Assembly: GCA_030637655.1 (NCBI GenBank)
Contig: DAOWGI010000097.1
Span: 1-39,709, forward strand
Origin: a candidate division FCPU426 bacterium
GTDB taxonomy: Bacteria; Oederibacteriota; JAAXVQ01; JAUVAV01
Direction of reading: 5' to 3'
DNA length: 39,709 bases
Position numbers and translations under genes: made by a program. Below the pieces are notes generated by a model. It had not been told where the DNA came from and did no database searches. It was given only the letters and a program-made list of their open reading frames with translations. Below, in pieces: positions 12,001-39,709 of this stretch. Positions within the stretch are counted from its first letter, which is position 1. Each line of letters opens with the position of its first letter.

Positions 12001-15000
12001 CCGTTTGCCTTGTACACGCGCTTCATTGATAAGTATCTGCGCTTCCTGATCAATTTCAGCCAGCAAGGTTTTATCCCCGGCTTTGAGCCTGGCGTCAAAG
12101 TCAACTTCAGCCTGTTTACGTAAATCCCTGCGAATAGGTTTGAGCAGACCTAATTTCACTTGAGATTCGTTAGCCAGCTCATTGAATTCCCAGGCGCTCA
12201 GATCAAGCAGACCTCTCAGAATATCCGGAGAGACACCGTATTTATCGCATAATGCCTGAACCCCGGTTGTCTCAAACTGAGTCCCTACAGTAGTTTTCAT
12301 TTGATCCCAGGTCTCACCTACATTGCTATTTTCAATAGCCAGTTCATGCAAAGGCAGCACACGCGCGTCTGTATTGCCGTAAAAATAAGCCGGATGACGG
12401 GTACGAATAAAATCATAGAGAACCTGAGGAGTCCAGTATTTAGAGAAAAAATAGCGCGGCCAGGGAATGAAATGGCGAATCCCACTTTCATCCACCACCA
12501 TCTTCATACCGCTGTCCTCGCGCTGTATGCGCTTCAAATCATTCATAGTAATGGGATTATGGCCATTTTGTGCGATAACGTAATTAAGTTCTGTTAAAAT
12601 CGCATAGTCATCACGGTCACGCATATCCAGTTTGGGATTGGAATGGCCGATCTTGCCGCCTCCACCGGAGAATTTGGTAGCGAGTTCATGCTGCAGGCGG
12701 TCGCCGGGATAGAATTTCAATATCTCCCAATTGTAATACAAAATACGTGTTTCCAGCTCCAGGGCGGAATATTTGCGCAGCGCATGTTGTCTGACCAGAG
12801 TATGGAGATTCATGTTGTTGCTCCAGGCTGTCAGAAGCTCCTCTTGTGAACCAAACTGTTTAAGCAATTCCACCTGGTTATTCATGGACAGCAGCTTTCT
12901 TTGGTTGGCAAAAGTTGTCCGCAATTCTTTCCGGCGGAATAAATTATATTTCAAACTTTTCACTGTGCTGTAGGGTTTAAGCATTTGCGCCAGGCGGTAG
13001 GCTTGTAATAATGATTCCTCAGAAGTATAAACCTCCTGCAAACCAAGACCCTGGAACATAGCCTTCTTTTGTTCAGGTGTAATCCGGCCTTGCTCAAATG
13101 CGCTAAGCGTCACTTGATCAGCTAAGCTCAACTTGCCGTTGCGTTTGGCGCTGTTCAGCATATAATCGAGACACAGGGTCTCAATTTTGAACATGCTCTC
13201 CATAGTAAGCATATTCTCAAAGCCGGCAGGCGAGAGATTTAGTTGTGGAGTGACTAAAAAATTCACAAGTGAAATCTGGTTATTAGCCAGAGTCTCCGGC
13301 TGTTCAGGTAAATTCGAATCCACTACAAAAGCAGTGTCCTTATATTGCACGATAGCCGGACTAAATAGTTCTTCACCGGAATATCCTGCTCTGGGTTTGC
13401 CGTGCCCGGGAGCAGTCACCATAAACTTACGGTATTCGCGTTCAAAATTAACCGGCCTATAAACATGTTCTTCCGGCACGATAAACGTCCAGAAATATTT
13501 ATTTTCCCAGCCGTCAGCTGCAATGCCTGCCCATCGCAAACGCAGCTTACGTTCCAACTCAACCACGCTCCAGCGCTCTGTACCAAAAGCTTTGTGCATA
13601 TCAATAAGTTCTTTTTTCAGTTGCTTGTTCCCGGCTAATCGCAGTTTTTTTAGTTTCGCGAAAACACGGCGTTTTTTTTCTTCATCCGTCCAATTCTGCT
13701 GTTGAGCATCATCAGCCAGGGACTCTAAGGCCAGGCTTACTTGCTGAGCATCCGTCTGGATATCATTGATAAAACGTGGAATTTCACTTGTCCGGCGAGC
13801 GTAAAAATTATACTTGCCAATCTCATAAACCCGGCTATTGTCCTCGCTATAACCATAGATCAGGTCCTGCATGGTCATAATAAAGAAGGTAAAACTGATG
13901 TTCATATCCTGGCAAAAGGCCTTGACCTGCTGATAATCGTAGATATCAATGGTCTGCACACGCTTCCAGAACTCAGTATGCTCAGAAGCCAGACGCAGGT
14001 TCTGCAGATTACCAAAAACCTCTCCCTGGCTGTGATTGATCCGGATGCTTACCTCAGCCACGGTTATATCGGTAATATCCAAACCCTCGCGCAGGATAGC
14101 GCCTTTAAGGTCAAGAGAAACATAGCCATAAGTGAACCAGGGGCGGACATAAATTTCCTGCTCCTGTCTATTATTGGTCAGCACCGTAATCTTCACATCC
14201 AGCCAGCTCTTCTGGCCTTTATATATTCCATTATAATCATACCGGAGATAGCGGGTTCTATTCAGTTCATCAGGTGACATAAGAAAATTAACCTGCGCCC
14301 GTGGTTGTCCGGATTTTGCTTCCAAATAGAAGTTATTCAGATCGCGAGTGACATAAACAGGTGAATATAGCAATTGTTTTGCGTCTTTATCATAAAACAA
14401 CGGCTGGACTAAACCCTTGGTCGTAATACGTTTGAAGGTAACGGGTGTTTCCAGGTTTTTATATTCCCGGTTTTGGATTGCATTAGGAGGCCGTATAATT
14501 TCATCATTCTGCGTATGGGAACAAAGACCGTTCAGCAGATAATCAATTTGATTCACCGGTCCGATCCGGGCAGTATCCGCCCTGGTCCGGCGTCCGCCTT
14601 GTGCCTGCTTGACCCCGGTTTCAGTAGTGCGATCCTCGCGAGGCGTGAACCAGGATGATACGCGCTGCCGGTCAATCGGAGCGGTCCGGTTTATTAAATT
14701 ATCAAAAGCGGTTTGCAAACTCGGCCATTTTAAGCTGCGCGGCGAGCCCATATGCGAGTCCGCTTTTTTCGCGAGAGGCAATACTGAGAGCACAATCAAG
14801 CCGAACATAGCCATATTCAGAATAGCACGCCGCCAGAATCCGGGCTTAGCTTCCCGTTTCTCCTGGTCCGAGGGTTTGCGGTTTATCCGATTACGAACAA
14901 TTTGAATGAGCGCAAAAACTCCTAAGGACAATAAGGCTGTCAGAAAAATAACCAGCCAGGGCCCCTGAATAGAAACCGTAGGTGTGAGCAAAGAGAGCGG

Positions 15001-18000
15001 CAAGGAATAAGCTATTCCCGGAATACGGATCTGGCCCATAGCTGAAAAGAAAACCATAGCTGCCAGAGCCGCGTAGATAAAAAGACGGCGAAAAGCTTTT
15101 TCCCGCCAGACAAGATCATCCATGGGTATCACTTCATTCATCTTTTTCAAACGTTTCTCAATCAAGGGATCCGTATGTTCCGAGCGAATCCGCTGTCTGG
15201 TCCGGGGGGAATAGAAAATACGGAACATGCCAAAGACCATCAGAATCAAAAGCCCTGAGGTGATGGCAAAAAAACCGGGCAAGAAAGTATTGGCTGTTAA
15301 AATAGACCCGACAAAGAACATACCGGTAACCACACTAACGATCACAGCTATCATGCGCCAGGGTGATTTTCCCAGCAGGCCGGTTTTGCCTGCGCTCCAC
15401 AGACTAAAAATAGTCGTCACCACAGCCACAATACCTGCTACTATATAATAATTAGCATAAGCAAATCCGCCATAAAGCCAGAATGTAAAAACTATTCCTA
15501 TGGCAATAAAGTAAAAAACCTTGCCAAAGAATTTCAACGTTCCCCAAAGCATTGCACCCGCAGCAGGTCCGGGCCGCATTTTCCGCAATTCCCTGATTGT
15601 TTTGCCTGTACGCCTGACACCTTCAACAATGCCTTTGACAAACTTTTCCGCCAGTATCAGGCCAACAAAGACCTGAATCACCGGTATGGACATGTGCCAA
15701 TTAAAAAGTATGGATAAAGCAATAACGGCAATAGTGCCGGTGGTTAAATAACGCCAGTTACCGCGCGCAAATTTTTCCAACCCAATATAATTAAAAAACT
15801 TAACCAGCTTCCAGGCCAGATATATAATAGCCACAGAATATAGCCAGTGCATGGGACTTATGTCTAAGAACTGGATAAGATTTTGAACAGTCTCTATAAA
15901 GACATGATAAATATCAATACTAATATTTTGCAGCCATATAAAAAACGGATCCAGATGAAAAAATTTAATTACCGGCCAAATATAAACATCCCAGACATTT
16001 TCTTTAAAGAGAACGCTCGCAGGTTTCGGAAGCATAAGTATTACCGCGCGTAGGAGGAACACAATATTATCTTTAGCCAGCAGCACCGGTATTTTTAAAC
16101 GGCCGGTCATCTTCTGAACTATATTCTGGTTGCCCCAGTAGGAAATAAATACACCTACTAAAGTTGTTTCCAGCATGCGTAATAGCGCATAGTACCCAGG
16201 CTCGACCAAAATGGGACCTAAGAATACTGCTACCATGAAAAGAACAGCAACCTGGTAGAGCAAGGTAGGCACCAGACCATAACTCATCTGGGCCAGAGTC
16301 TTCATAGTATTGTAGCGGAAGCTTTTCTCGGTGAAGAACTCAATAAAATAGGTAGTAGCGTAGTTAATCATAAGCATCAGACTCACTACCAGCAAAGTCT
16401 GTGAAAGATCGTAACTCACGGCGACTTTCATAGTATTAGTGATAAGCTGCGCAGAGATATCCGATGTGCCGGTAGCAAACGCTATTATAGCCATATTAAA
16501 AAAAACAGCTCCCATAATAGGGGCTTTGAAACGAATAATAAGGTCAGCTATAAATTTCAAACGAACAACCAACCAATCCTGGGCTGTAATAACAACCGGA
16601 CGGATATGCTTGTTCCATACCTTGTCCAGGACCCGGAAGAATGGGACTAATTTCTCTTCCCAGAATTTTTTTAAAATTCGCTTCATATTGCGCCAGACAA
16701 ACTTCGCAAACCGGATAATAATTTCGTCTTTAATAAAATTGGCAATATCCTTGATAATCTGGGTCACATTGCCCACGATTTCCAATCTAAAAAATCTTAT
16801 GATCCCATCCATAGCCAAGCTGACACCGGTTATAAAGATGGAGACCATAGGTACGGCTACTTTATCTTTGAGCCAGATCACTGCATCTTTAATCTTAGGC
16901 AGCACAATCTGCAAAAACGATTTTATGAATGTATCATAAATTTTTACAGAAATAGTCACAGGCAACAGAAGCAGAATTTGCTTAAAATAATGCCCTATAA
17001 AACGCGAGGTCTGGCGCACAAAACCATGGGGATGGAGTCCTATGTCTATCAGTACACGGCCAATGGGATTGACATACCACATATATTGTCCCCAACGTTG
17101 GTACCAAGGTAATTTATTATGCAAAACCTCCATAATCTGCAGCACATAATTACGCATAACCCTGGCAGGCTCATACTGGGTCTGAATCTGACGGTTTAAA
17201 AGAGCTGCCTCGGTCATGGCTTTCTTACCTTGTGGTGTCTCAAAGAATCTAAAGAAATCCACCAGATCGCGGTTTAAGCGAAAAATAGTTTCCGGAATAA
17301 TTACATCCCCGGTTTGAAAACCGGCTTTTTCAAAAGCACGAGCTTTACGCTGCTCTTTGGTGGCATTCAGACTTAATTGACGTCCTGCCCACCCCGACAG
17401 CATAAGCAAACCAAAAACCCCCATAATAACCGGCACCACTGCCCAACTGCTGATTATAATTAAAGTAATCCCTGTTGCCAGGGAACCTAAACCTAAGCAG
17501 AGCAAGCTAATACCCGGATTTCTTTCACTCAAAAACGCCAAAATGATGATTCCCAATACCATGCCCAGCAGAGGAAACACTACTGCACTGGAAGTTATAA
17601 GAAAAACAACACCAACAATCATTAATCCTGAACCCAGGATGCCTCTAAAAAAAGCACCCTTGAAATTTAAAGGTTCCTGCTTCTCTATTTCAGTTGATTC
17701 TGCTTCTGTATCTGCTTCAGCCTCAATTGTGTCAATTGCCGCCTGGGTGCCGGCATCTGAGAAGCTTGCCTTTTTTTGTTGGCCCGCCATTCTGTCCTCT
17801 GTTTCATCCAAACTGGTTATCAAATCAGACATCATGGCCTTACGGCTGGCATCTGAAGTAATAGCTTCAATCAGCAGTATCATGTCGTTCGTCAATTTCC
17901 GGGCTTTTTCATCTTCATTGTCTGTATCTTTGACATCATTGCCCAGCAGGGTAATCCCTGGTTCCCCTAATTCCTGGTTAATCCGGATGGTTATACCTTT

Positions 18001-21000
18001 AATTTTAAGCCGGCCGGCCGGAGTTTTAGCTAAGGAGCGGATGTGGTTGGCCATCAAATCCAGATCAATCCGCGTATCCTCATCATCCTTGGGCAAGTCC
18101 GCAAAAAATGCTTTGTCCACAAAAAACTGGTTCTTGAAAAGCCTGAATACCTGTTCCGGTGTAATTTTAACAGTGCCTTTTTCAAAGAATGTCCGGTTAA
18201 GCTGACGCGCAAAAAGTTTCATGGCATTGTTACGCATCTGCACAACTTCTTCACGCTTGACAGTTGCATAACCGCCCAAGAAGAAAAACCGCATGCCTTC
18301 AGCCAAATGTACACGATAAATATCCGGCACTGAGAGCAGGGCAATGGCTAATACTTCAGGAAAATTGGCCAATGGGCCGGGACGGCCGGTACCAAAAGTA
18401 TGGGACATCAGGTGAATACCGGCCTTGTAATACCGCGCGACATCCTCATCCTCCACAAAACCGGTATACAAAATATTGCTCCCCACCAAGCCCATAACAT
18501 AGCGGGCCACTGCCTCACCGGCAAATTTGTCACCAGCAAGTGCCGGGTTGGGATGAGGACCGCCGGTGAAATGAATATTTATAAGATGTTTTTCAATCTC
18601 TGCATCCAACAATTCCTGTATGTCTTCACTAAGGGCTTGCTGTATGACTGCCTTCTCTTCTGAAACATTTTGCGGTAATCGTTTTTGCTCCTCCAAAAAA
18701 ATTGTGACTTGTTTTTGAATTTCCTCTTTAACCTGATCCTCAGCCAGGGCTTCATCCGCGGACAAAGACTTGCTGTTCTTCAACCGCAAACGTATTGCTG
18801 CCTGATATTGATAATAACTCAGCTTACGCTTTTGTCGTTGCGGATCCCCCGGAAATTCAGCAACTACTTTGAGACGCGCATTCTTTTTAATGGTCAGCTG
18901 CGTTTTTTTGCGCTGGTTCTCCTGAATTTCCATTACCGCCTGATAATAAATATCCGTGAATTTATAGGAACCCAGTTTGCCGAATGTAAAAGCGTACATT
19001 TCATTAAGCGACAAGCGCGTATAATCAATCGCCGGTCCAACCTCGGCTTTATTCAACAATTGATGCGGAACAACACCAGTACGATTTATTAAATTCGGAT
19101 ACCAGGGATTGTACTGGCTGATAGCCCTGGCATATTCAGGCTGCAGAAACATGATCTTATTGAGATAGCCGCCATAAATCATCTGGGACAGCCCCCAAGT
19201 GCCGACCTCTTCCAAGGGTCCTACCTGTTCCTGAGTGGCTTTTAAGTCAACCCGTTCAGCAACGTGGTGATAAACTGCTACTTGAGGTTTAAGGAATGAA
19301 TTTATAGACCGGGAAATATGCGCGACCACAGCGCCTAGTTTATTCTTATCACCCTGTGAGGTAAGAAGCATGTTGATAAACTCAATCACCGAATTGCTCC
19401 GATAGCTCTCACTCAGATTGCGGGGCAGGTTGTACAGAAAATCAATATTCGTGCCTTCGTCATGATAGGTCTGTATTAGCTTTAAGTTGTTATGTTTCAA
19501 GGCCGGCGAGAATACAACGCCGTTATCATCAACGCGTTCAGGCAATAAGCTATGCAGAGGAATCTCTTTTTTATAGCGCAATGGTCCCGGAGGGCTATTG
19601 ACCATCATCACAAACTCCACCTCCGGACCGGCGGCATTGGCCAACTCGATGATGGTTTGCTGCATAAATTCGGATACACCGCCGCTTTTGCCCAAACGTC
19701 CCATTTCACCTTTTAAATTGATAAGTTTATTGGGAATAGGCTTTTGGGTATTCTTATCCTTAGCCTGAAGTTCCGGGATGATGTCCATTTCATCATTGGC
19801 GACCTGGGACAAGGTGGTTAAAACACCTGTCCCAATAGCAGGCAAATCAGTTTTGATCTTCAAATTGCCCGCAATAATTTCTCCGATCCTCTGCCCCATG
19901 GTAGCAAGCTCCAGGGCATGAGGATGTATGCGCCCACGCTGGCCGACAGATTGACAGACATCTCTTAAATAGGTCATAGCCTGGAGTTTTTTGGATGGGT
20001 CAGCCAGAGTTTTTAAATTATCCAGTAAGCCTTGATCCGCCAAAACATTGTACAATTGCCTAAGTTTGGGGTCTGCAATAACTAAAGGACGTTTGACCTC
20101 ACTGCCAAAAGATGCAATAATCAACTGGCGCAGGTTCTCTATATCTTTTGCTATTTGAGCCAACTGGGTTGACAGATGGAGTTCTACATATTTATTGAGT
20201 TGCTTAAGTCCGGTTATTGCTGTGGCAGCATCCGCATTAAGCGTTTTTTGAGCATCCGCAATGCGCACGAGATCTTCAATACTCTCCGGATCCTGTAAAT
20301 TCCTATCACTCAATTGCTGCCAGAGATTTGCCAGCCGTTGGGTTTCATCCGCAGCTACTGCTTTGCCCTTACGGAGCAGTTTGAGCATTTCATGGAGTTT
20401 TTCCATTTCAAAAGGCTGTAAATCCTTGGGCACAAGCTCGCCGTCACGTCCAGCTGAAGTAATGTTGCTTACTACCGCGCGCAAGTCCATGTCTTCAGCA
20501 CGGAAACCACTGCCTAAAGCTTCAATCGGCATTTTTGCTGTGCGTTCTCTGGCACTGCTTTGCAATCGGCGCAGCTCAGCGGCGGTTTCATCAGCGCGAA
20601 TGTCGCCCAGCCATCGCTGAATCTCATAAAGCAGTTTGATATCCTCAATAGGATCTGAAACCGTTTTTTGATCTTTAGCTTCAGCCGCTGCTTTAGCCAG
20701 GCCATCCAGGAAATCCGCTTTACGCTTTGCCTGCTTGGGCAAAATTCGTCTGTCTACAACCAGATTATTGAGCAAAGGATGTAATTCCGGCGGCATGCCA
20801 TAAGCGCCTATGCGCTTGAATATGGTATCAAGAGTTCCCACTGCACCGGCTATTTCATTGCGGCGGTAGATACCCATCCAGTCACTTAAAGTTGTTGAGA
20901 CCGATATAATTAATTTTTCTCCCGGTTTTATTCCCTGCTGTTGGCGGGCAATGTCAATCGCCTTTTTTACCTCCTCTTCCGAGACCTGCTGCGATAAAGC

Positions 21001-24000
21001 ACTGCGATCTTGTATCATATATCCCATCTTACTCCAGATCGTATTCAGGTCTTTATCTATTTGGCGGACCGAACCATAGAAACCGCGGCGCTGCGTAGCA
21101 GCGACGCGTGTATCTTCAGCTCTGAATTCATGTTCATCGCCAATGACTGATCTATCAGTTGTGTATTTAAGTTCACCGCGTTTATCTGCCAGCCCGGCTT
21201 CGCGATTAAAATCAACCAACCATATAACCCCAATAGCAATAACAAAAATAACAACTGCCTGGGTAAAAAAGATAAAGGCCGGCACAATAGCAAACATTAT
21301 ACCCAACACAGAAAAACGCGCGCCGCGCACAGCGCCTGGTATAAAACTATCAATCAGGATCGTCGAGAAGCCTAAAGCAAATAATACTCCCATAGCCAAA
21401 AGAAAAGGCGAACCTGAAGCAATCATTAAAACAACTATCCAGATGCCGGCCGCAGCCATGACAACCGCCCCAAGAAAGTAAAGCCCTTGGCTTAAAAGCG
21501 GCAAGTTGGAGAATGTTTTTTGACCCATATACCGGTCGGCATTACCCCGGCTCTTCCGGGCTTTTTCAATGATATTGACATAATTATTTAAATTAGTATT
21601 ATACTCCGAATCAAAGTGCTTGTCCTGGTAGCGGGCTTTAAGACGCTCTGTTTTCTTCTGTGCCTCGGTCAGCTGAGTTTGTATTTCTTCCAAGGCTTTT
21701 TGGCAAGTCGTATTCTCCGGTTCTTGGTTCAGTTTTGATTGCGCAGCAGAGAGCTCTTGTTGCAGATCCCTAACCTCAGCTTCAGCTGTTTCCACTTGCT
21801 TATCCAGAAACTCACGGAATTCCTGCACATCCATTTCCAGGACCGTTTTTCCCTTAACATCCTGATTGAGATATTTCATAAAGTCGGCAATCTTAATAAC
21901 ATTACGCTTATCATAAACATCATGCTGAAAATCAAAAAGTATATTTTTAAAACGTTGATAAAAAGAGGTTTGCGGTGCCGCCTGCGCGTCAGTTTTATAA
22001 TAATCAGTAATCATTATATCGCCGTCAGCATTAATTAATACCTGATTCAAATCGCCGGTATAAACTACTCCGTTGGTTTCGAAAATATTGACAGCTTTCT
22101 GGAATTTTTGCGCCAGTTCAGTAATGCGTGCCAAATGCGCCAGCTTCATTTTCTCCCGTTCATGGTAAAACTTCCCCAATTCATCATACAAGGGTGTCAA
22201 TTCCGCATCCAGCGCAACAACTAATTCCCGGGCTGTTTTATACTCGCTTAATTTACCCGCAGTCTCGTTGACCTTGTTTGTAATTTTTCGCACCTGTGTT
22301 TGAAATTTCACGAGTTGTTGTCGGACCTCAGCCCGGCGTGAACGCAAACTCTGTAAACGAATCTTTTCCTTTTTTAAAAGCACTGCTTTCCCGGCAAGTT
22401 TAGCAATTTCCGCTTCAATACGCGTAAGCCGGTCCTGAGATCCTTTCAGCATCCACTCATAATGCTGAAGTAGTTTCATATCCGGTTCCAGCTGGTCAAG
22501 CGTGCTAATAAGTTCAGCTTGCTTCGCTTCAGCTTGGCTGATTTCCTGCTCGTTAGCTTGCAAAGCTTCCACTTTTTCCTTCAGATACTCTTGGGCTGTC
22601 TGCCCCAAGGGCTCTGCCGTTACTATAAAGCTTTGATTTTTAATCTTCGGCATCCGCGCCTGTTCACCAACCTGATCAATCACGCGCACATCATTTGTCT
22701 GGAATTTGAATGCTGCCAATCCCGGCAACCCTTGGCGGTCAAAGCGGCGCTGCAATTTCTCAGCTTGTTTGGCCTGGGCTTCATCAGCAATAACAATACG
22801 GTGAATAGCGCCGGTAGCGAGTTCCACACCCAGAGCATATTTTTGTTCTTCGTTCACTTCTGTAATCACATAAGAATGATCACGGCCATCGTGCCCTTGC
22901 ATAACCAGAACCCGGGATTCCGCCTGGCAGATGGTAAGCAGGCTTGTTCTATCTTCCAGTTTGATCATCTCATAATCAGCCATGGATTCCGCTGCACTGA
23001 CATTCTTTACATAGTTATACTCTTCAAGCTCCAATCCAATGATCATTTCTTCAAACATGAAAGTTGCTTCAGCTTTGGCTGCGGTAAAGATATTCTGATA
23101 GAGTTGCCAGGCCGTATCATCCAGGGAAGCAGCATCAACAGCGCCCAGTCCTTCAATTGCAGTTTTTACTGCTTGGTAGCGTTGTTTAATTTTTTTCTGA
23201 ATTTCACCCTTAAAACTATGGATGTTCGAGAATGCCTGGTTGGGAAGCTCGTCAAAGCTTAGGTAACTGCGATCAAATTCAATAAGCAGACCAGTGGCAG
23301 CTCTAAGAATTTGGTCAATTTCTTCCCGATATCCCTGGATCGATCCTGTATTACTGATTAATTTAAGCAGATTTACCTGGTCTTCATTTAACCCCTCGGT
23401 TTGAAATTGGTAAAGCCATTCAGCGCTCTGGCGTATTGCTTGAAATGCTTTTTGGACTTGTTGATATTCGTCCCCATCCAGTCCATTAATATCTACTTTG
23501 GCAATAATCTCTAACTGCGCAATGATATTTTGGAAAGCTGAAACATTTTCTTCGATATTTTGTGCCTGGACTGATTTTATTGTTTGAGTTAATTCCCCCA
23601 GGCTGATTTGCTGTTTTCGCAGGCGTTCCCGCCATCCGGCTTCAAATCGTTCTTTGAATTCCCGGGGAGTTTGGGCGGCAGCCAGGTTTTGAGGTTGGAG
23701 ATACTTTTGATAAACCGGATTATTAAATATGGCTTGTTTGATCCGCTCAAGTACAGCAGCTTCATAACCGCTGGATTTTACCCAGGAGACTTCAGCAAAT
23801 TGCAGATCCAGAAGAATGCGGCTGATAACCGAGAGTTTGGTTTCTTTTTCGAGCAGACTCACCAAATTATCAATTTTTAAATCCCGGCTTATCTGATCTG
23901 CGCTGGGTGTGAGCAAAAGGGTCATCAAAATATTTTCGCGGTTGGTTTTATTGCTTTCCAAAACCGTATCCAGATAATCAATCACACTCGCATAAGTCGA

Positions 24001-27000
24001 CTGCGTATCAGCCTGGTACTCAGCACGTTTAGTTTCCGCTTCACGATTCGCAACGCGAATTCCCTCAGCTTCATCATTAAAAAATATGTACTTGAATATA
24101 CGAACAATGCCAATGCGTATGTTAGTGCTCAAAGCGCCGATACCATAAGCCTTCCCGGCTGCGGCAGGACTCAAAACAGCGGCTTTAATTAAAACCCCCA
24201 GTATCAAGGCCGGCACTGCCAGGGCCAGAAAAACTTTTACCAGCAATGGCTGCTTGACCAGGCCATAGCAGGGATTCACTTCCAGCGTGGCATTTTGCCA
24301 TATGCCGGGTATTTTCTCATTCGCATAACTCAGGAAACCATTTATATCGATGATGCTGTTGCGGTCAAAAACAGAGAGTCCGTGTGTCAAAAATTCACCG
24401 GCTCCCAGCATATTATATGGAGTGTTGCTGATATGCAGCCGGCCCACCATATCCCCAGCCTGGTCGAAAAACCGCTGCAGCTTGCCTGCCAGTTTTTTTC
24501 GAACATCCTTCACATCCTTACCGCTTTGTTTTGCCTGCTCCAGTTCTGCGAAATAAATTTCACTAATATGCCAGGGATCAAAAACTATTTTAACCGGAAT
24601 TTGTTTGCCTTTATTTTCTGTTTGCCAGCGGGCACGCAATAATTTCACCATTTCGATTTTTTCTTGCATAAGTTTTTCTGCGACGGCCACCTGGTTTGCG
24701 GCAATGACATAATCTTTATCACTCAAGCCGAGGCTCTGTGCTTCTTCCCGGGCAAAAACAGTCTCAAGGTTGATACAAATATTATTGCGGCTCGCCTGAC
24801 TGAGCAGAGCCATCTCAGCGGCACTACGGTCTGTGATTCCTTTCTCAGACATATAGAAAGAAATATATTTTTCCCATTCATAGGTATGAAACACCACATC
24901 TACGCGATCAGCATACTGCCTCTCCATAACCGGATGTATATCTGCCGTACGTTCTCTAAAGGGCACATGATATGCAGCTACATCCAGACTAAGCCATTTA
25001 GCAACTTGCAATTGATCCCCGGTAGCCATAAGCTCAACTTTTTTAGTGTTCATAAAGAACGCCATATAGAGTGCGTAAGGCGCCATAATCATAAAGGTTA
25101 CTGCTTTGGCCAAAATCCCTGAACCCAGGCGTTTTCCAATGAAGGGCAGGAAACGCGGAAAGCTCGCAACAGCTGTAGAGACCGCTGCTTGATTCAGAAA
25201 AGCTCTGGGTGTATAAATCTCCGGGGTTTCCGTAGCTTCTGTTTGCGCAGGAGTTTCCTTTGCTCTGTCACCGTATTTTAAACCCTGCATAAAAACCCGC
25301 GCTTTTTCAAAAAAAATGTCCGCTGTTTGTCTCTTAAAGAGTCTGGCATGCATGCCTTCCTGTTCCAGAGCCAGATAGCCGATTTTTTCACGGGTAAAAT
25401 TATTCACCCGAATTTCTGTTTGAGCGTCAAGTCGGGAAGCATCACCCCATCGGATATCCACAACTTCAAGACCTTTGGCTGCAAGTTGATCTCTAACCAT
25501 TTGCATAAAAACCATCTTGCCTGCACTATCCATGCCATTATCAAAGGTAATGCCAACCGCATTGATTAAGAATTCGGCTTCAGCCTGACTGAACATATGC
25601 TCAATCCGGCTAACCACAAAAGCAGCCTGCCGGTCTAATTGGGATTCCCGGCTTTCAGCGTAAGTTTGTACTTGCTGTGTGAAATCCACAGTACCATCCG
25701 CACCGTCCATAGCCACAGCGCCGGATTTGACACCGGTCCTGGTTATGCGGATAGCAGCAAGCCGGTTCTGTCCTGCTGCTGCTTGCTGCTGAATCTCCTC
25801 GAGAGAAAACAAGGCTGCAACTGAACCAATAAGCCCTGGTCCCAAGCTCTCTACACCTTTTAGCTCTATATTTTCATATCCCCGGTCATACATATACTCA
25901 TTGGCAGTTTTAAGAATTGCCATTCCCTGAGATGAAAGTTGTCCGTTTTCATTACGCAGAGCAGCATGATCCACCAGAAAAATTTCAGAATCCAACCAGC
26001 TATCCATATCCTGGCGCAAAGGCTGTTTTTGTCCCTGCAAACGGTAATACATTTGTATGAGCCAGTTGAAAAAGCCGCCTATTGGAACCACAATAAGAAT
26101 AACAGCTTGTTTGGCAATGGAAAGAACTCTTTGCCGTAAAGGTTGTTGTCTGCCTTTTGATCTTTCCAGTGTCATCAGCTTGACTAATCCCAGAAGCAGT
26201 CCGATAACCGGACCAAAAAGGATATTAATCCATCCCAGCTGGAAGAATGGACCCCAATTCACATCAAACATAGTTATCACAGGTCCGAATTTAAAAATCG
26301 GACCAATCTGCGCGAGCCCCTGAAACCACAATCCACCATTGAGCAACTGAAATACCCAGTCACCAAAATACAGACCGACAATGACCATGCCAATGGTACT
26401 GACTTTGCCGAGCATACCTTTATTCCACAGTAAATTTTTGGTAATCTTTCCGACAGTCACACTGGTGATATTAAGAAAAATTATCCATGCTAAGCCGGTC
26501 AACACCTGGGCCAAATTAAGCTCAATAATGGCTAAAATAATATGGAAAAAAGCTCCGTAAGTTATGGCAAAGGCAAAAACAGCAGCCAACAGAGCCATAA
26601 TCCATCCCCTGGTTTTGCTCCTGGTCACTCCATACGCTAAAAACCAGCCTACTGTGAGCGAAAATATGGCAATAATACTAAAAGTGATAATATGCACTCC
26701 AAAAACCAAGAAGCCTGCTCCAACCAGAATAGAGCCAATAAAGGCGATCGCTTGATTTTCTGCCAGACGCTGCATTTGCGACGGTTTGTAGACTCGGGAA
26801 TCTTTGCCTTTTATCATGGCAATCGCTGTTTTGGCCAAATTAACACCGGCTTTTTGGGTCTCAATATCATTCAGTTTTGTTTGGCGCCCCGTGTTTAATT
26901 TATTCAATAAAGCAGCAACCGTCTGTCTTGGTTTATCTGCATCCACTCCCTGCACATCTGCCAATGTAATTGCCGTGCCTTCGAAAAAACCCTCTGCCTG

Positions 27001-30000
27001 GTATTCTGCCGGACGAATCATGAGACCGCCGGCCTCAGGTGTATTAGCGACAACAAATTGCTGATCAACCAATTCACTGATCTGACCATATTGAGAATGA
27101 GCCATCACTGCGGCAACTACAGCCTTACGCACTTGATTAACTACATTTACTTGCTTCTGAGGCGTTTCCAGATAGGCAACAGCACTGATGGCAAAAATCA
27201 GCAGGCCTGGATTGGCAATTTCGGTAATGCGTTCTTCCAAAGCATGCAACTCTTGGGCCTCAATGCTATCCAAGCCGGCTAAACGTGCTATCTCATTCTC
27301 CAGGCTCATGAGCTGACCACGGTCATCACCCTGGATTTCATTGAGAAATTTTGCAGCCAAAGTCTTAACCTGATCGGAATTTCGAGCCTTTTCACTGTAA
27401 TCCAACTGTACCTGGAGGTTTGTTTGTTCAGCATAGTAGGCATCAATAACCGATTGGACAACCTCTTCAGAAAAACCTTGTTTGCCGCGGCGCTTGGCAT
27501 CTATATTTTGCAGGCGCATCAGAATAGCCTCAAGTCCTGTGTTGTCCGATAGGTTGAAGGTGTTGAGTTTACTAATTGCCCCAAAATCCTGTCCCAGGGT
27601 TATGAGAGCTTTTTTTAATTTGCGAACATCCGAATAGTCAAATTCAACCGCCATATCAATAACATTTTCAGCTTCATTAATACTCAAGCCGGTCTCTGCA
27701 ACTAAGAAATACAACACCTTAGTGCGATACACCATCTCCTGCACAATTCGCATGAATTCCGCAGGTACGTCCGCAGGCTGCCCGTCCAGCTTATTAATAA
27801 TAGCATCAGACATGGCATTAGTAATATTCCCGTCTCTACGCAAGGCTTGTAAAAAATCATCCCGAATATCGGAAAAATCAATTTTTTCTCTTCTTATATC
27901 AGCATTGACACTGCTCAAATCCACTGCAAAGGGATTCAGGGCTGCAGGAAAATATGCTTCCTGGAGCTTAAGTTTACGCTGAACATAGCGAACAGCTGCT
28001 GCTTGCTTAAAAATCGGACTCTTCCTATAGCCTAAAGCCAATCCGATCTTACCGACCAGGCCTTCAGGTACGCGGCCATCTTCACTTAAAAGAGCCCAGT
28101 ATTTTTTGGTCAAATCAGGAAATTTAAAGCTTAGGATCATGCCATCAACAATCATCATGAGTGTGGCAAATCTAAATTTAGCCGCACTATCCAGAAAAGA
28201 GTGCTCGTACTGGGAAATATCATGCCCTGTCATATGTAAAAGACGCTGCTCCACAGCTGCTAATAAGAACTCCGCTGAGTCGCGGCCTGCTGCTACTGTG
28301 CTTTCTTTAGCAGAATCAACCCAGGGAATTTCAATGCCCCGGACTTTATGACCGCTCAGGATAGTCAAGGTCTGCACTTCAGTCTCAAATTCCATGCGAA
28401 TACTTGAGGAAAGCTCTATGACCTTTTGCACCACTTCAGGTTTAAAACATTTGAAGCCGCATTGCGTATCCGGAATACTGCCAATAGACAGAATCATGCG
28501 AACCATAGTATTAAAAGCCGCACTCATCACTTTACGTGTGAAAGGTTTACCGTAAACCACGGATTCCCTACCCACGCGCGAGCCATAGGTTAAACCCAGC
28601 ATCTCTGTGCCGGAATCAAAATGAGGTTTGATTAAAGAACCTGTAAAAGACAGATTAACTGAGGTATCAAGATCCGTACTACAAACCAAGTCCACTCCTT
28701 GTTCAACCTGCCATTGCATGCTCTCTTTAACACCGCCGCCTTTCTTGCTCTCTTGTGCCTGCTTAGCAGTATATCCCCGCGAGCGCAGGCGGTCAGTGAA
28801 GTATTCCACATTGATTTGCTTTTTATATCGTTCTGCTTGGGTAGGATGTTCCAGCAAAATTTGTTTTTTTATATTATCCATCACACGTCCGGAACTGCAG
28901 GCATCATTGGTAAAGAGAATAGGCGGGCCTTCCTGGGCTGCACATTCTGCAGGATCCGTTAAAAATGGGGTGTCACCAGCTATGATAGTCAGGGTGATGC
29001 CATCTTTCGGAATACGTCTGATTTCATCAATATTTTTAGCCTTGGCATTCTCAGCATTTTGCAGATCAAACTCAGCCTCATCACGCAGTTCTTTCAGATT
29101 CATACTTGGTTGTAAAACTGCGCCAAAGTGCTTTTGCAGCAGAGAGCGGTTAAGGAGCAACAAATCTTTTGGCGTGAGTTTTCCGCCGAATTCAGTATTT
29201 TCCTTAGCACGGATTTGAATACTGCATATTGCCTGGCGCAGTTTTTCATCCTCAATATCTGCTGCTATATACAAATCCTCATTTACCAATACATAGTTCA
29301 GAGCTTCCAAAGCCTGTTCTTCGGTTAAGCCGGCTAGTTCGTCTGCTTTCATTCCCAATTTTTTCAATACTAAAGTATTGACCTTGTGTTTTTTTGCCAG
29401 AGCCTTAGATAATTTGTTCAGGTCTATATCGCCTTTTTTAAAGGTTTCAGTTTCAAAAGATTTACGTTTGGCGCCAAATATATAAGGGAACAGATAAATC
29501 AATAAACCTGAAACTCCAATGATAGTGAGCGTCATCGCATCCAAGTGCAGCAAAAAACCAAATATTTTCCCCATAATTCCAGCAATTCCGGTTGCGCTGA
29601 CAATCGCGGATAAACCCTTGATGCCGGACAAGACATCGGCAATACCGGAAAAAAGCAAGGTTATTCCTGTTATTTTAGCCAGAAAAAGTATAATGCCCGT
29701 GATAAACGTGATAATGGTCGAGATTACCGGCAGATCAGCAATTAAGATTAGTATGGACTTTATTATATCTAACCCGGTTATAATCCCGGTGGCAATAAAG
29801 CCGCTGATCTTGCTTGTAATCCATACTACGGGCTTTAAATTGGCTATTACCATGGCTATGCTGCCGGGAATTCCGGTAATACTCAAGATAAAGTCCACTC
29901 GTTTATTGACTTCTTTAAACTTTTTGTCTAAGCGATCAAATTCTATTTTAGCTTCCTGTACCCGCACATCAAATTGTTCATCTAATTTTTCACCAATATT

Positions 30001-33000
30001 CAGCAAGGTTGCCTTGGCTTTCTCCCTGATTTCCAGTATCTTTTTCTCATCCTTCATCACATCTTCCGGCACACGTAAAATAAGGTAATCAGTTTCAATT
30101 TTTCTATCTTCTTCTGAAGCCAGTCTGGACTGCTCGGCAAATTCCATGATAATCTCGTCAATCTTAGCAATATCTGTGATAGAATCCGGATTTTCGTGTT
30201 TTGGTTTGTAGGGATCACCAGAGTCGTCTACTGCATAAAGTTCCCATTGCAAATTTTCATTCCAGGCAAAATTGTCATCCAATTGTTCGACTTTTTGGCG
30301 CAGCGCATCTTCACCACTGGGATGGCCGAGCGGTGACTCGGATATATTAGGCTGCAAACGATTGATCTCGCCATACATAGAAAAACCCATGCCCACGCGC
30401 AGTTTGCGCGGATTCCCAGCTTTATCCGTAGACAGTTGATCCTGAGTGATTTGCGCGGCATCCACTTTAGACCAGGCTAATTTCATGATATAGCGGAACA
30501 TGGTCCAGTCTTCATCCAATTTATCTCTTAGATTGAGCACCTGCACTGTCTGGCCCAATTTTATATTCCTTTGATACTCTTCCCAACGTGCGAGACCGGC
30601 TTTTGCTTCAGCAGCCTCCACGTCTGTTACTATCTTTCCGGCATCACGCCGTGCAACCATTTCAGCATACAATTCCTTCCCGGCAAAGAGTTTCCGGTTC
30701 TCTTTATGACTCAGCACTATAAAAGGCAATGGCGCTGCTCCGTTACCAGCTTGCGCAAGTTTCATAATATCAGCAACTCGCTCACCAACAGCAATACCGT
30801 CATTACCGGCAATAACACGAATCTCTTTGCGCAGGTTTTCCAAAACCTTGGCAGCAGCTCTCACCTTAGTGCGTTGAACTCTTTTGGCTAACAGACCTAA
30901 CCCGGGAAAACCCCGATCTGCATCTTTAATTTTAACCAAACCCTCAATGCGTTCATCAATAATAACTTCCAAGCGGTCAGCCAGATCGCTTGGTTTCATT
31001 TTTTCAAACTCAGTTTGGTTTTTATGTGCTTCCCATTTTAAAGCACTATTTGCTTTTTTGACCAAATCATTGGCTTTTTTCTCAATAGAAGTTAATTTAA
31101 TATCCTTACCAATATCAACCAAACGGTACTCTGCCAAACCGCACAATAAATCCTGGTCTGTTTTCTTTTCATCAAACTGTTTGCGCACAAAAGTTTTTAC
31201 CTCTTTATTTCCGGATAGCAGCACAGCTGCAATAAAACTGGAAACTGCCATAGACAAAGCTGTGTCAGCCTGCAAATACGTCATTTTATCTTTTTTATTC
31301 GAATGTTTATCCAATTCAGCTTGTGCACGCATCTGGAAAGCCCTGGATTTAAACCAGCTCAGCGTAGCCTTAAATTGCTCCAGGGTCAGGTCCTGTTTTT
31401 CCACCAGTTCGCGCAGTTTTTTAACTGCAGCAACTTTGTCGTCACTACGCCATAGTGCATCAAAAAGTTCATCTCCCGCAGCGCCCTTAAATATGCTATC
31501 TCCGGAACCTACCTGCACATCGATCTCAGCAGCTCTATCCGGCTGGTCAGGCGACTTGAAAAAACGTATCAGCCGGCCGATCACCGGATTCATAGCCCAA
31601 TTGCCCCAGGTGTGGCTGGAATAGGATTCGTGAGTTAAAATAGCTTGATACAGATCGCGCTCCACTTTGTTCCGGCTAAATTTGAGATCACGTAAAGCTG
31701 CAATCTGTTCTTTTGTCAGCTCTCCGCGGTCTCGGGCTATGGCATCGCCGCCCGGCATAACACGCTTGATAATCCGGCTCCAGTGGTTTGTCTGCCAGGC
31801 GGTTAGGAAAGGAATCATGGCGCCGATCACAGCCACTAAGCTGGTCGTGAGAATCGTGTTATAGGCGCCGGCACCGAGCAAGAATGTTAAACCAAAATAC
31901 GTCAGCGCGGCCAGTACCATACCAACCACACCTGTACCAAACGCACGCTTCGCAGTCTGCGAAGCAGCGGCAGCGCTATAATCATGTCCAATAATCCCAC
32001 GGCAGAATCTGTCGACACGTTTGGTAATGGTTTCTATGGGTATGGAAAGTTGTAAATTAACCGAATGATTCTGTGAATCCTTTTCAAACTTCCAATCATC
32101 AGCAGTTAAAGCATAAAATAGCTGCAACTGTGTTCCACCGGGCGTAGTCCAGGTTGGGCCCGTACGCAGATACGGTGAAAATTGTCCGCGAGCCCGTAGT
32201 TCGCCGTTTTCTTTAAAGTCAAACAAACCGGCATCCGTAGCTTGGATCCCTGTGCCCCAGCTTAAGACATTACCGTCACTCCAGCTCCTGCCAATCGTAA
32301 AGGCAGGACCTATTGCCAACCCTTGCTGAGCCGGCGTTCGTCCCTGAGCTGCCAATTCAGGCATATACCGTAATATACTGTAACGGGCGGACAAACCCAT
32401 ATCATAGAACCACTGATTGCGTGAGCCCCATTTCCACTGGCTGTTAATGCTTCCAACAGCTGTAATATCACCATAAGGCCGTAGCTTGCTATAATCTGTA
32501 TACAAACCAAGCGTAGATTCAAGCCCCAAACCATACGACCAGCTAAATCTGTCTGTTATTGTTGGTTTTGAAATGCGGTACAAGGTCCCCCAATCCGGCG
32601 CGTAGGTTAATTCAACAATAAATCCCCAGGTGGCGCCTTCGCGTTCATCCTCCCACATTTTTTCCTCAATATCACGCAGCCATTGGTCACCGCCAATACT
32701 GCCCAGGCGAAAACGTAACTGGGGTGATATTCTCGAATTCCATAACAGGCTCTGATTTTCAGTGCTAAAATCAATAGTAGAAGCCAGTATCCGCTCGGCA
32801 AAGGGATTCAAACGCAGACGCTCGACAGCTTTACCATAACTGGTGTAATCCCAGGGCAGATCCAGACGTTTGATATCTGTAGCAGCCTTGGTATCTGACG
32901 GCGTTTTCTTGAGCATCATCTGAAAGTGCTTGCCAAAATCCCTAAACTTGGTCGTTTTCTTCTTCTCCGCGTGCTTTAAGGCGGCGTTCGCGTCTTCCTC

Positions 33001-36000
33001 AACAATGGATTTCTTGGCTTTTTTAATTTCAGTCTCCGGCACCTGGACAACCAGCGTTTTATCTTCAATGTGTTCAGGGCTTTCTTTTTTCGCGATCCTG
33101 ACAATATTATCTTTAGTGATTTTTTCAATCCCAATTTCCTGCCGAGCCTCACTTGTTCTCTCTGTCTTTTTCTCCACCGGTTTTACCGCTGCAGAAACTA
33201 TTTCCATTTCCACCTTGGTCTCTTTTTCCGCCACCAGGCTTATGCCGGGGCGATCACCAACTTTTTTTGTCTCTGCTGCTTGAAATTGCCCTGCCGGCAT
33301 ATTTAAAAAGGATAAAATAAGTATTATGGCAAAAACTTTCTTCCATCCGCCGGAAAACCAATTTTCGAATTTTAACCGGTGTATTACGCGACGCAGCTGT
33401 ATTATGAAAAAAGCCATGCTGCCAACAATCAGCCCCTGCGTTATTACAGTTGCAACTCCGAGGCCTTCCATAAACCCGGGTATTTGCAGCCCGCCTACTA
33501 TTAAGACGCCTACTACCGCTCCGATTCCGGCCAGTGCCAGGAATTGGCGGGAAGTAAGACCTCGCACGGTTCGCACTACCCCCTGGATGGAAGCAATCAT
33601 TCCATTCTGGATTTTTTTAAATAATTCAACACCAGGCGATCTAAAGCGGCGCACTGAATAGGAAATTAAGAAAATTGCTGCTATTATAGCAACACTTACA
33701 CCGATTACTTCCAGATACGGGGATGACAAAATGTCAGCGAGCAGACTACTAAAATTTACAGCCATTGGTTGGGCCGCTTGTTGCGCAGCTGCAACAACTT
33801 CCTTTGCCGCTTGAGGAGCAACTTGCACAATATCAGCCAGTGGCTGTACGGCTGCTTTCGCAATTTCAACCATTGGCTCTGCGGCTGCCGGTATATTCTC
33901 AGCAGTTTGTTTCACTGCTTCTATTGCTGCCGGTTCTAAATCAACCACCTGCTTGGCTACTTCTGATACAACCGATTGAGAAGTCTCTATAATCGCGCCT
34001 TTGGCGTGTTGTGCCGCGTCACCCAACTTTTCCGCAACTATTTGTATTTTTTGACCTGGAAAGATTTTATCAATATTTATAATCGACGGATTTAAAGCTT
34101 GAATCGCCTCTGCGGTAGTGCCCAAGCGGGCGGCAATCATGCCAAGCCAGTCACCCTTGGTAACAGTATACAAAACCGAAGTAGAAGCCTGAGCAAAACT
34201 GGTTAAAGGTCCGAGTAGTAACGCTGCTACCGCGCCCACTCCAACTTTCACCCATTTCGATGATAACCAGCCTGATTGTATTTGATCTCCAACTGATTCC
34301 GGCTTACTGTCTGCAAGAATGGCAAGCGGCCCTTTTGAAGACCAATCGCGAACAGCGCGCATTATTTCCGGCAAATTTAAGGCAACCATGACGACCGCGG
34401 CAATGACAGCGCTGACCGGTCCAGGCACACCCGCGAAAAGAGTCAACCCGATGCCCAGGAAAATAATCCCTACACTGGCAATAAAGCGAACGCTGTGGTT
34501 TAATTTTCCCTTCTCATCAAAAAATTGCCGGCTAAAATCGTTACGAAGATTACTCAAGCTGCTGCCAACATTATTTCTAAAATTGCCTGCCATGTTCGGA
34601 AGTCCGGTAGTAATGCCGCTAAACGCCTGGGTGAAATTTTTAAAAGCGCCATTCTGTTGGCCGGTGACCAGCACCGCGCCGCCGGTGGTCATAATGGCCA
34701 TAGGAGCCATGAGCTGGATCAAACCGGCACGCAGTCTTGTGCCACCATGCCTAACACCGGCCCGGCCGCCTGCCAGAATTCGCTCTTGCACTTGGGCTAT
34801 TGTCTCATTATCCATGACCACAATCTCATACTGAAAACCGGCCATGTCCAGGCGCGCCAATTCCAGAGCACCAAGCTGTTGATTCGCGCCGCGCGGCTGA
34901 ATAATGGCTGAAACACTAATGCCTTGGAAAGGCACAATATAGGTGTTGCCGGAAGATACCACATTTTCCCAATCCACAACCAAACCATTGGCATAAGGAT
35001 AATTGGCCATATCCGCTTCACAGGCAGTCCGGATTTCGCTTACTTTGGATTTGCCGCTTTCCACCTCGTTGGCAAAATCGATTTTCTGCAGAACCATACG
35101 CATGAGGTTTACAAACACGCGTACGTTTTCCGGCTGCGCTGCTTCCTCTTCCGGAGTAAGCAGGCGGCTCACCCATTCTCCGTCCGCATTACACAGGAGA
35201 GCCTCCCTAACTTGCGGAGATTCAGGAGCCAAGGATAAGATATTTTGGTTTTCAGCCAAAAGTTTTTCCAGAGGAGTTTTGCGATTACGCATCAAGGCGA
35301 AATAGGGATTGACCAAATTTTTGTGAGTAATACGCGGACGCACGGACAAATACGAAATACCGCGAGCCTGCATTTCCTGCAAAACACGTTCCGTGTGAAA
35401 CCCCCCGGTTACCATAACAGCCGTCTGAGTGCTGTATCGATTCATTTTACGCAGAGTGTTGGACACAAACACTTCCGAGCGTTCATCTGCCATGCGATAA
35501 AACGCCGACACTTTTTCCAAGTATTTATCCAAGCCATACACTTCCGCGTCCAACAGCATATCGCTTAAGGTGTCGTGTTTTTTAATCAAGTTCACAAAGT
35601 GCTTTACTGTGTACGCATCAGGATTTTGCTGAAAGGCTGTTAATTCTTCCGGCGTAGCAGAGATGTTCAGCAATTTTTCCATCAAATCGAGTTTGGCCAA
35701 GGCGTCATCCAATTGCTGCTGCGCGTCAGTGGTATACAGACAACTGCGGATATCCGCATCCAAAGTATCGATTTCCTGATAAACAGCATCCGAATCCACG
35801 TCTTGCGGCATCACATTACGACGGACGGAAACGTACTTGGCGAGATTCACCTGCGCGCTGAGATCCAACTTAATCCGGCAGCCATATCTGACCAAATAGA
35901 CCGCGTACTTTATAAGCGAAATTTCACCTTCGCGATACGCCAGTTTCCGATCATCCAATTCCTGCAATTCCGGGTTATATATCCCGGTTTTCAATTCATG

Positions 36001-37003: not shown

Positions 37004-37180
37004 AGGGCGATTACAGGGAATCGCCCCTACGGTTAATTTCGGGCACGCGGTTTTTGCGGGCGCACTCAGTGCGCCCCTACGGTTAATTTCGGGCACGTAG
37101 TTTTTGCGGGCGCACTCAGTGCGCCCCTACGGTTGATTTCAAGCGTGCGATTTTTGCGGGCGCACTCAGTACGCCCTTAC
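37004..37180 (-). repeat. Cluster of four GTAG-type REP hairpins in a 50-bp tandem array
   Basis: GGGCGATT..AATCGCCCCTAC, then three GGGCGCACTCAGTGCGCCCCTAC-type units with a 50-bp period (37022, 37072, 37122, partial 37172). CTAC reads as the GTAG foot on the minus strand. Confidence 0.85.
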
Positions 37181-39125: not shown

Positions 39126-39709
39126 TTATGCAGCCACAGAGGTGCTGTAGAAGAGCCGGCGCCGCTGCATTTCAAACTTGTTCTCATCCACCTTGGCCGG
39201 ACTCTGCTTATGATTCAGAATTCTATACCAGGCGCCCATTCCGCTATTTCCGCCAATTTCCCTTAACACTCCCGGCATATGTATCGGCTTGCCCAAAACC
39301 ACTTCAGGCGCTCCGGATAACCAGCGGCCTATCTTCTTACTGGGCGTTAGCGCCTTCATCTCAGAGAACAGGCTGTCCACAAACACTTCCGACTCTTTAA
39401 ATCGGGTATAGTTATTAATAATATCCGCTGCCAGCATATCATCTTTTACTGTCTGTAATAAGGTCCTGATAAAACGCTGCTCATTTCTGCGGCTGGGTTT
39501 TTCCACAAACGCCCAGTAGGCCTGCATCACTGAGCTCTCCTCATCTGCCATCATCTCTCTGAAGGTTTTACTCTCTATGGGCAACTGCTCTACAATTTTT
39601 TCCAGATAACTTCGCGCGTTCTCCTGCATAGCCATTTGATGCATACGCCGCGTGGGTATTATAGATATAATGTTCAGCAGAAAGCTTCCGGATCCTTTAG
39701 GCGCTGCTC
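39126..39709 (-). CDS. 3' end of a hypothetical protein (start lies beyond the right edge), ending ...MQRRRLFYSTSVAA
   Basis: The frame of the 172-aa track ORF stays open to the window edge (AAPKGSGSFLLNIISIIPTRR-MHQ...), so the Met at 39644 is probably internal. Confidence 0.75.
   Translation of the reverse strand, partial: AAPKGSGSFLLNIISIIPTRRMHQMAMQENARSYLEKIVEQLPIESKTFREMMADEESSVMQAYWAFVEKPSRRNEQRFIRTLLQTVKDDMLAADIINNYTRFKESEVFVDSLFSEMKALTPSKKIGRWLSGAPEVVLGKPIHMPGVLREIGGNSGMGAWYRILNHKQSPAKVDENKFEMQRRRLFYSTSVAA

Follow-up and report, generated by a model that had tools for sequence, protein, structure and literature searches.

The 39,709-nucleotide window analysed here, the whole stretch of contig DAOWGI010000097.1 (assembly GCA_030637655.1) from a candidate division FCPU426 bacterium, carries a giant open reading frame (ORF) on its minus strand. 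Judged by its sequence, a segment of the giant protein comprising amino acids (aa) 1281–1532 and a 24-residue lead-in is an orphan porin-like domain with the hallmarks of an outer-membrane β-barrel of about 12–14 strands. The domain is probably a membrane β-barrel. According to the reading favoured here, to which we assign a probability of about 0.5, the barrel is placed in a periplasm-facing loop and attaches the giant inner-membrane protein to, or couples it with, the outer membrane. Its fold has yet to be proven, and how it would work is a matter of speculation. The motif HSVNLQLSIP, which closes the domain, lies at aa 1522–1531 (nucleotides 32038–32067), and nucleotides 32035–32790 of the minus strand encode exactly aa 1281–1532. 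The elements concerned are as follows.

1..36630, minus strand: giant ORF, 12,210 aa or longer, with an ATG at 36630 and no stop, continuing past the low end of the window.
32791..32862, minus strand: conserved lead-in, aa 1257–1280, DLP.(D/N)Y.SY...RL.L.PFA.R, helical in a low-confidence AlphaFold2 model.
32035..32790, minus strand: porin-like amphipathic β domain, aa 1281–1532, about 12–14 long strands, recognised by composition, periodicity, the ESM Atlas and a classifier.

The sequence signature of aa 1281–1532 is real and conserved. When the giant protein is divided into 479 segments of 250 aa, the two segments over the domain rank first and second in tryptophan content, and the segment starting at aa 1251 ranks first in the fraction of β-type amphipathic segments. 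Tryptophan and glycine account for 5.1% and 10.2% of aa 1280–1535, compared with 1.4% and 6.3% of the whole protein, and serine and threonine for 9.0% and 8.2%; the β domain is rich in glycine, tyrosine and tryptophan and contains no cysteine. Hydrophobicity alternates with a period of two residues, the signal at 170–180° reaching z = 4.2–4.9 against 200 shuffles, with no excess at 100°. The tryptophan ranks and this periodicity bear out an earlier reading made from the letters and ORF translations alone (hereafter the sequence-only reading), which had described about 250 residues of amphipathic, aromatic-rich strands at this position.

When 1.84 billion representative proteins were searched with phmmer, a single relative emerged, P0002, a 3,884-aa fragment of a giant protein. 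It is collinear with aa 709–4438 of the window protein, and across the domain the identity is 43% (E 1.3e-70). The two domains share 42–43% identity over about 280 aa, with many invariant glycine, proline, tryptophan and tyrosine residues. Common to both proteins are the lead-in, the β domain, the motif GHDYSAAAA-x-QT, an α-helical hairpin and a block beginning HESYSSHxWGNWAMNP, whereas the linker at aa 1121–1256 is mostly without a blastp match in P0002, which carries an acidic segment of an estimated 280 aa or so in its place. No relative was found among the 185,579 species genomes of GTDB, either by the domain or by the domain plus the conserved downstream block. Word-indexed searches among proteins of 502–2000 aa, with a two-sequence profile among proteins of 157–525 aa at E <= 5, and with the region among proteins of 30–5498 aa were also blank. 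Because the last of these missed P0002 although its length fits the range, the blanks of the word-indexed searches are weak evidence.

In the ESM Atlas, the named clusters among the matches listed for aa 1280–1532 (of 30) score 0.93–0.94, and their families, namely SlipAM, Tsx/OmpK, DUF2860, OmpG, DUF6850, CymA and BBP2_2, are all outer-membrane barrels. One listed match is without a common Pfam family, and the ten best family-bearing matches share a family or clan. With the longer segment aa 1260–1545, the closest named clusters are NfrA_C, DUF6850, Omp_AT and Tsx at 0.87–0.88.

The second line of evidence comes from a classifier, a regularised logistic model of composition, periodicity and strand-face features, which was trained on 22 outer-membrane barrels, 33 β-rich soluble or non-barrel controls and 164 other ORFs of E. 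coli K-12. The soluble controls include fimbrial subunits and chaperones, propellers, LptA/C, TamB, RhsA and the Ag43 passenger. In cross-validation, the area under the curve is 0.981 for barrels against the soluble β set; against the other ORFs it is 0.997. With a score of 6.03, the window domain lies above all 33 soluble controls and 9 of the 22 true barrels, and none of 200 shuffles reaches this value. Along the giant protein, only 7 of the 479 segments score above zero; they start at aa 1201–1351, and all overlap the domain. On the hydrophobic strand face, the fraction of aromatic residues is 0.19 for the window domain and 0.28 for P0002, as compared with medians of 0.21 for barrels and 0.10 for soluble β proteins. 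Among the other ORFs, 1 of 164 exceeds 6.03, a fragment of the nmpC porin pseudogene disrupted by IS5 (L002 10758–11885, minus strand, E. coli K-12). This nominal false positive is truly a barrel and hence served as an unplanned check of the classifier.

The last strand and the predicted models add details. An eight-residue β-signal consensus with four specified positions is given in PMC10945584. By our own reading against that consensus, the last strand of the window domain, SVNLQLSI, agrees at three of the four specified positions, with N in place of G, and the last strand of P0002, TIGFELSV, is a strict match. Over the whole domain, the window protein has six strict matches (1.8 in shuffles) and P0002 has one (2.4 in shuffles). 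Both AlphaFold2 runs were built on a two-sequence alignment. The second of two models, for aa 1280–1532, shows a meander of about 13–14 strands of 7–19 residues joined by short turns; at its low confidence this is a hint only.

The placement of the domain relative to the membrane is predicted from the elements around it.

34039..34170, minus strand: LysM peptidoglycan-binding domain, aa 821–864 (Pfam E 4.1e-10, 39.9 bits against a cutoff of 20.9).
33400..33708, minus strand: three transmembrane helices, aa 975–993, 1030–1048 and 1059–1077, whose K/R-rich loops are predicted to be cytoplasmic.
33271..33348, minus strand: signal-peptide-like helix, aa 1095–1120, with WKK, VFAIILILSFL and NMPAGQFQAAE, predicted N-in and C-out.
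32863..33270, minus strand: K/E-rich linker, aa 1121–1256, defined by sequence reading and homologue comparison.
31945..32034, minus strand: short linker, aa 1533–1562, holding the invariant GHDYSAAAA-x-QT.
31963–31989, minus strand: GHDYSAAAA, aa 1548–1556, invariant between the window protein and P0002 and without a family match.
31798..31944, minus strand: α-helical transmembrane hairpin, aa 1563–1585 and 1593–1611, with a very short loop around AYNT.
31519..31632, minus strand: strongly conserved block HESYSSHxWGNWAMNP...KSPDQPDRAAEID, aa 1667–1704, defined by homologue alignment.

LysM binds peptidoglycan and was taken as the periplasmic marker. It is separated from the β domain by about 415 aa with four hydrophobic segments at aa 975–993, 1030–1048, 1059–1077 and 1099–1117. 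Their K/R flanks alternate in accordance with the positive-inside rule, with 5, 3, 4 and 4 on the predicted cytoplasmic side and 0–3 on the opposite side. Because LysM is periplasmic and the four segments alternate, the linker and the β domain are predicted to be on the periplasm-facing side. The helix at aa 1095–1120 has the n-region WKK and an h-region of just 11 residues, and lies about 160 aa upstream of the β domain rather than at an N-terminus. P0002 carries KARFR, a hydrophobic stretch and GRAYA|DD at the same position, the last of which reads as a classic A-x-A site of the signal-peptidase type. The hairpin begins 31 aa past aa 1532, and its helices have Kyte–Doolittle values of 2.04 and 2.03. 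Both the upstream signal-like helix and the transmembrane hairpin about 30 residues later, as described in the sequence-only reading, were therefore found.

Several observations weigh against a barrel that is embedded in the outer membrane. First, no homology to any described barrel family was found in Pfam, NCBIfam or the PDB: Pfam gave no family for the domain of either homologue at E <= 10, and likewise none at E <= 0.1, NCBIfam gave no match, and phmmer and profile searches of the PDB gave no significant match for the domain. Second, the Atlas recognition value of 1450–1502 is below the 2300 reached by 91 of 100 known families, the shared features number about 150 and thus fall below 170, and family agreement of the kind described above arises in one third of shuffled proteins too. 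Third, the shuffles average 3.38 in the classifier, so that about half of the score of the domain reflects composition alone; the P0002 domain scores 2.68 and is outscored by 3 of the 33 soluble controls (nanM, rhsA and tamB); and the control set is without carbohydrate-binding or glycoside-hydrolase sandwiches, the most realistic soluble alternative. Fourth, in neither protein does the last strand have a terminal aromatic residue or lie at the chain end, and a terminal β-signal was not found. The label "β-signal-like" given to HSVNLQLSIP by the sequence-only reading hence holds for three of the four consensus positions, and fails at the substituted glycine, the terminal aromatic and the chain end.

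Structure prediction gave no confident model. AlphaFold2 reached a mean per-residue confidence (pLDDT) of 31.3 and a predicted template-modelling score (pTM) of 0.26 for aa 1260–1545, and 41.7 and 0.30 for aa 1280–1532, and Foldseek found no match in the PDB at E <= 1e-3 with either model. The best non-significant matches were OspA, lysenin, complement and gasdermin pores, OmpG and GFP, with template-modelling scores (TM-scores) mostly of 0.10–0.15. Such low-scoring matches to single sheets and pore hairpins point to a sheet that is open and not closed into a barrel. The outer-membrane-barrel appearance claimed by the sequence-only reading is thus carried at the level of sequence by the Atlas, the classifier and the periplasmic placement, whereas the AlphaFold and Foldseek checks that it proposed yielded no confident fold.

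The surroundings of the domain raise further difficulties. Both flanks of the hairpin carry K/R residues (2 and 3 within 15 residues), with the cytoplasmic side fitting slightly better. In both homologues, the tether on the downstream side measures about 30 aa and, even fully extended to about 10 nm, falls short of a typical periplasm, which is about 20–25 nm wide in E. coli. In addition, the presence of an outer membrane and of the barrel-assembly (BAM) machinery in the host is assumed.

The alternative that survives best, and is a possible one at well below even odds, is a soluble or peripherally membrane-associated periplasmic β domain acting on cell-wall or envelope material beside LysM. 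Its fold could be a sandwich or jelly-roll of the lectin, carbohydrate-binding or glycoside-hydrolase type, or a lipid-carrying β-taco or jelly-roll like that of TamB or LptA. Sandwiches also show alternating hydrophobic strands, and a composition rich in W, Y, G, S and T is typical of carbohydrate-binding folds; yet the aromatics on the hydrophobic face are at the barrel level, about twice the soluble-β median, and the predicted strands of 13–19 residues in the low-confidence AlphaFold2 model would be unusual for a sandwich. If composition alone is scored, nanM and rhsA rank above the domain, and so do tamB, rhsA and elfA if periodicity and face features alone are used, whereas with all features combined the window domain tops every soluble β control and only its P0002 counterpart is outscored by three of them. 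The giant ORF itself offers LysM and a weak match to GH5, and a study of giant genes by West-Roberts et al. (10.1101/2023.11.21.568195) describes repeating antiparallel β barrels of about 200 aa resembling the carbohydrate-binding module CBM35 in a Dockerin-type giant protein. Against this, no Pfam carbohydrate-binding, glycoside-hydrolase or AsmA-type match to the domain appears even at E <= 10, and no lectin, carbohydrate-binding, hydrolase or lipid-transfer family is found among the nearest named Atlas clusters listed. The open sheets of the AlphaFold2 models and the tether of 30 aa to inner-membrane helices, most easily explained by a domain near the inner membrane, also favour a soluble fold. 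A propeller or other repeat fold was considered and rejected, as the internal repeats do not go beyond chance: self-matching gave a best score of 31, as compared with 25 ± 4.7 for shuffles (maximum 48), and such a lack of internal repeats argues against a propeller.

It is distinctly unlikely that the domain is a pore-forming module whose barrel inserts into a prey or host membrane instead of that of the producer, which would need exposure at the cell surface. The sequence evidence for membrane β-structure is identical to that for a barrel in the producer's own outer membrane, and attachment, predation and pores in target envelopes have been proposed for such giant ORFs in PMC10066038 and 10.1101/2023.11.21.568195. 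The lysenin, complement and gasdermin pores among the top Foldseek matches are non-significant, and no similarity to a toxin family is seen in Pfam. The hydrophobic helices within 31 aa are most simply placed in the producer's inner membrane. Furthermore, each subunit of the known β pore-formers supplies one or two hairpins, not 12–14 strands in a single chain. Finally, the reading that the domain is a product of chance composition, in a spacer without function within a very long ORF that mostly lacks recognisable domains, is scarcely credible in view of the conservation of the domain in the collinear P0002 next to a mostly unmatched linker and of the failure of all 200 shuffles to reach the classifier score.

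If the domain is a barrel linking the giant protein with the outer membrane, the elements around it can be arranged into a tentative mechanism. The signal-like helix at aa 1095–1120 would drive Sec-dependent export of the loop, and the long, poorly conserved K/E-rich linker would give the domain the reach to the outer membrane, where it would fold as a barrel and anchor or couple the giant protein. Because the downstream tether is shorter than the periplasm is wide, either the chain would be cut near GHDYSAAAA or the barrel and the hairpin would hold both membranes in close contact. Candidate processing features are the signal-like helix, the A-Y-A|D of P0002 at the same place and the invariant GHDYSAAAA, a candidate processing or docking motif. 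Excision of the barrel at both ends, one of the two possibilities named by the sequence-only reading, may be considered, although signs of actual cleavage were not found. The barrel may also act as an export pore or adhesin anchor, as suggested in that reading. The two outcomes, namely a protein passing through both membranes with a built-in barrel and a contact-site tether, or a polyprotein that releases the barrel at the signal-peptidase-like site and GHDYSAAAA, are together put forward as a doubtful extension of the barrel assignment.

Comparison with known systems places the domain closest to the small and medium-sized monomeric barrels, which are also its neighbours in the Atlas and the classifier. 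Like the domain, Tsx/OmpK, OmpG, CymA, Slam (SlipAM), DUF6850 and DUF2860 have about 250 aa in about 12–14 long amphipathic strands, are rich in G, W, Y, S and T, have no cysteine and present an aromatic-rich hydrophobic face. Unlike these families, to which it shows no detectable homology, the domain lies within a chain of no fewer than 12,210 aa, between a signal-like helix and an α-helical hairpin, and has a last strand without a terminal aromatic. In inverse autotransporters (type Ve, intimin and invasin), a barrel of about 250 aa likewise lies mid-chain with LysM on its N-terminal side, and the chain goes on after it. However, four hydrophobic helices separate LysM from the domain in the window protein, P0002 shows no LysM, there is no Pfam match to the barrel family of inverse autotransporters, and the domain is followed by transmembrane helices and not by Ig-like passenger repeats.

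The premise of the sequence-only reading that a barrel is normally the end of the chain goes too far, because in OmpA, fimbrial ushers and inverse autotransporters further domains follow the barrel. These fusions are to soluble domains and not to inner-membrane helices. We know of no precedent for a barrel flanked on both sides by α-helical membrane segments, and the literature searched contained no example. A single polypeptide present in the inner as well as the outer membrane is described for VirB10/TraF of type IV secretion in PMC3070162, and an uncut version of the region described here would likewise span both membranes. VirB10, in contrast, crosses the outer membrane by α-helices from 14 subunits, and no sequence relation to the domain was seen. 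The giant proteins of Omnitrophota ('Archaeovorin'-type) likewise exceed 10,000 aa and have many transmembrane helices, few recognisable domains and cell-wall-related hints. Unlike them, the window protein shows no SecA-DEAD, C39 or S8 domain within the 12,210 aa that the window covers, and a phosphoglucomutase/phosphomannomutase (PGM/PMM) gene rather than a type II secretion locus lies upstream.

The remaining features of the giant ORF and its locus are as follows.

34186..34257, minus strand: internal signal-peptide-like segment, aa 792–815, KWVKVGVGAVAALLLGPLTSFAQA|S, ending ...FAQA|S, defined by sequence reading.
37177–38823, minus strand: PGM/PMM gene with four domains, upstream of the giant gene.
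39126–39644, minus strand: ORF of 172 aa, upstream, with a match to DUF6196 below threshold only.

The gene content of the window consists of the giant ORF, the PGM/PMM gene and one small ORF, and no secretion-system locus, type II secretion genes included, occurs in the 3 kb upstream of the giant gene, where the PGM/PMM gene is found instead. Dozens of hydrophobic helices (Kyte–Doolittle peaks above 1.6) are distributed over the whole giant ORF. Across all 12,210 aa, Pfam gives three matches in total, LysM, GH5 and Glycophorin_A, and none to SecA-DEAD, C39 or S8 domains, while the ORF extends past the window. The match to the GH5 cellulase family PF00150 at aa 8962–9121 (9268–9747, minus strand) is weak (E 3.7e-4, 20.5 bits, below the cutoff of 23.5) and is the sole enzyme-like hint in Pfam over this length; that to Glycophorin_A is far under its cutoff and is regarded as spurious. 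In P0002, no LysM and no Pfam domain above its cutoff were found. The segment at aa 792–815 closes with a classic A-x-A site five residues ahead of LysM. Each exported module of the giant protein may be led by such a signal-like segment, which would fit a polyprotein. The block at aa 1667–1704 is near-identical in the window protein and P0002 and conserved far above its surroundings, with no Pfam or PDB match; speculatively, its pattern of histidine and glutamate might bind a metal. The flanks at aa 53–636 and aa 1612–2244 gave no sequence match in the PDB.

To our knowledge, outer-membrane barrels are made as separate secreted proteins. In a survey of 76 families, fusions of outer-membrane pore proteins to further domains are noted to be rare (PMC4827864). 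A 2026 preprint on giant proteins reports no β-barrel calls in 916 proteins, and 2 BETA calls of 947 are dismissed there as artefacts (10.64898/2026.06.07.730766). Because that survey has no accepted barrel calls, the domain at aa 1281–1532 would be a first candidate. If the domain is a soluble sandwich instead, it is an ordinary unannotated domain. If the barrel assignment is true, either both membranes are spanned by one chain that combines α-helical and β-barrel membrane structure, or giant proteins are polyproteins that undergo processing; the latter is named as an open question in the giant-gene literature (10.1101/2023.11.21.568195). The candidate cleavage residues are pinned to QAA|E near aa 1119–1120 and to GHDYSAAAA at aa 1548–1556. 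Either outcome, the stitching of two membranes or the release of a barrel from a polyprotein, would represent a route of barrel biogenesis without precedent, and an outer-membrane barrel within this protein would concretely answer, for the first time, the question of how giant membrane proteins interact with the outer membrane.

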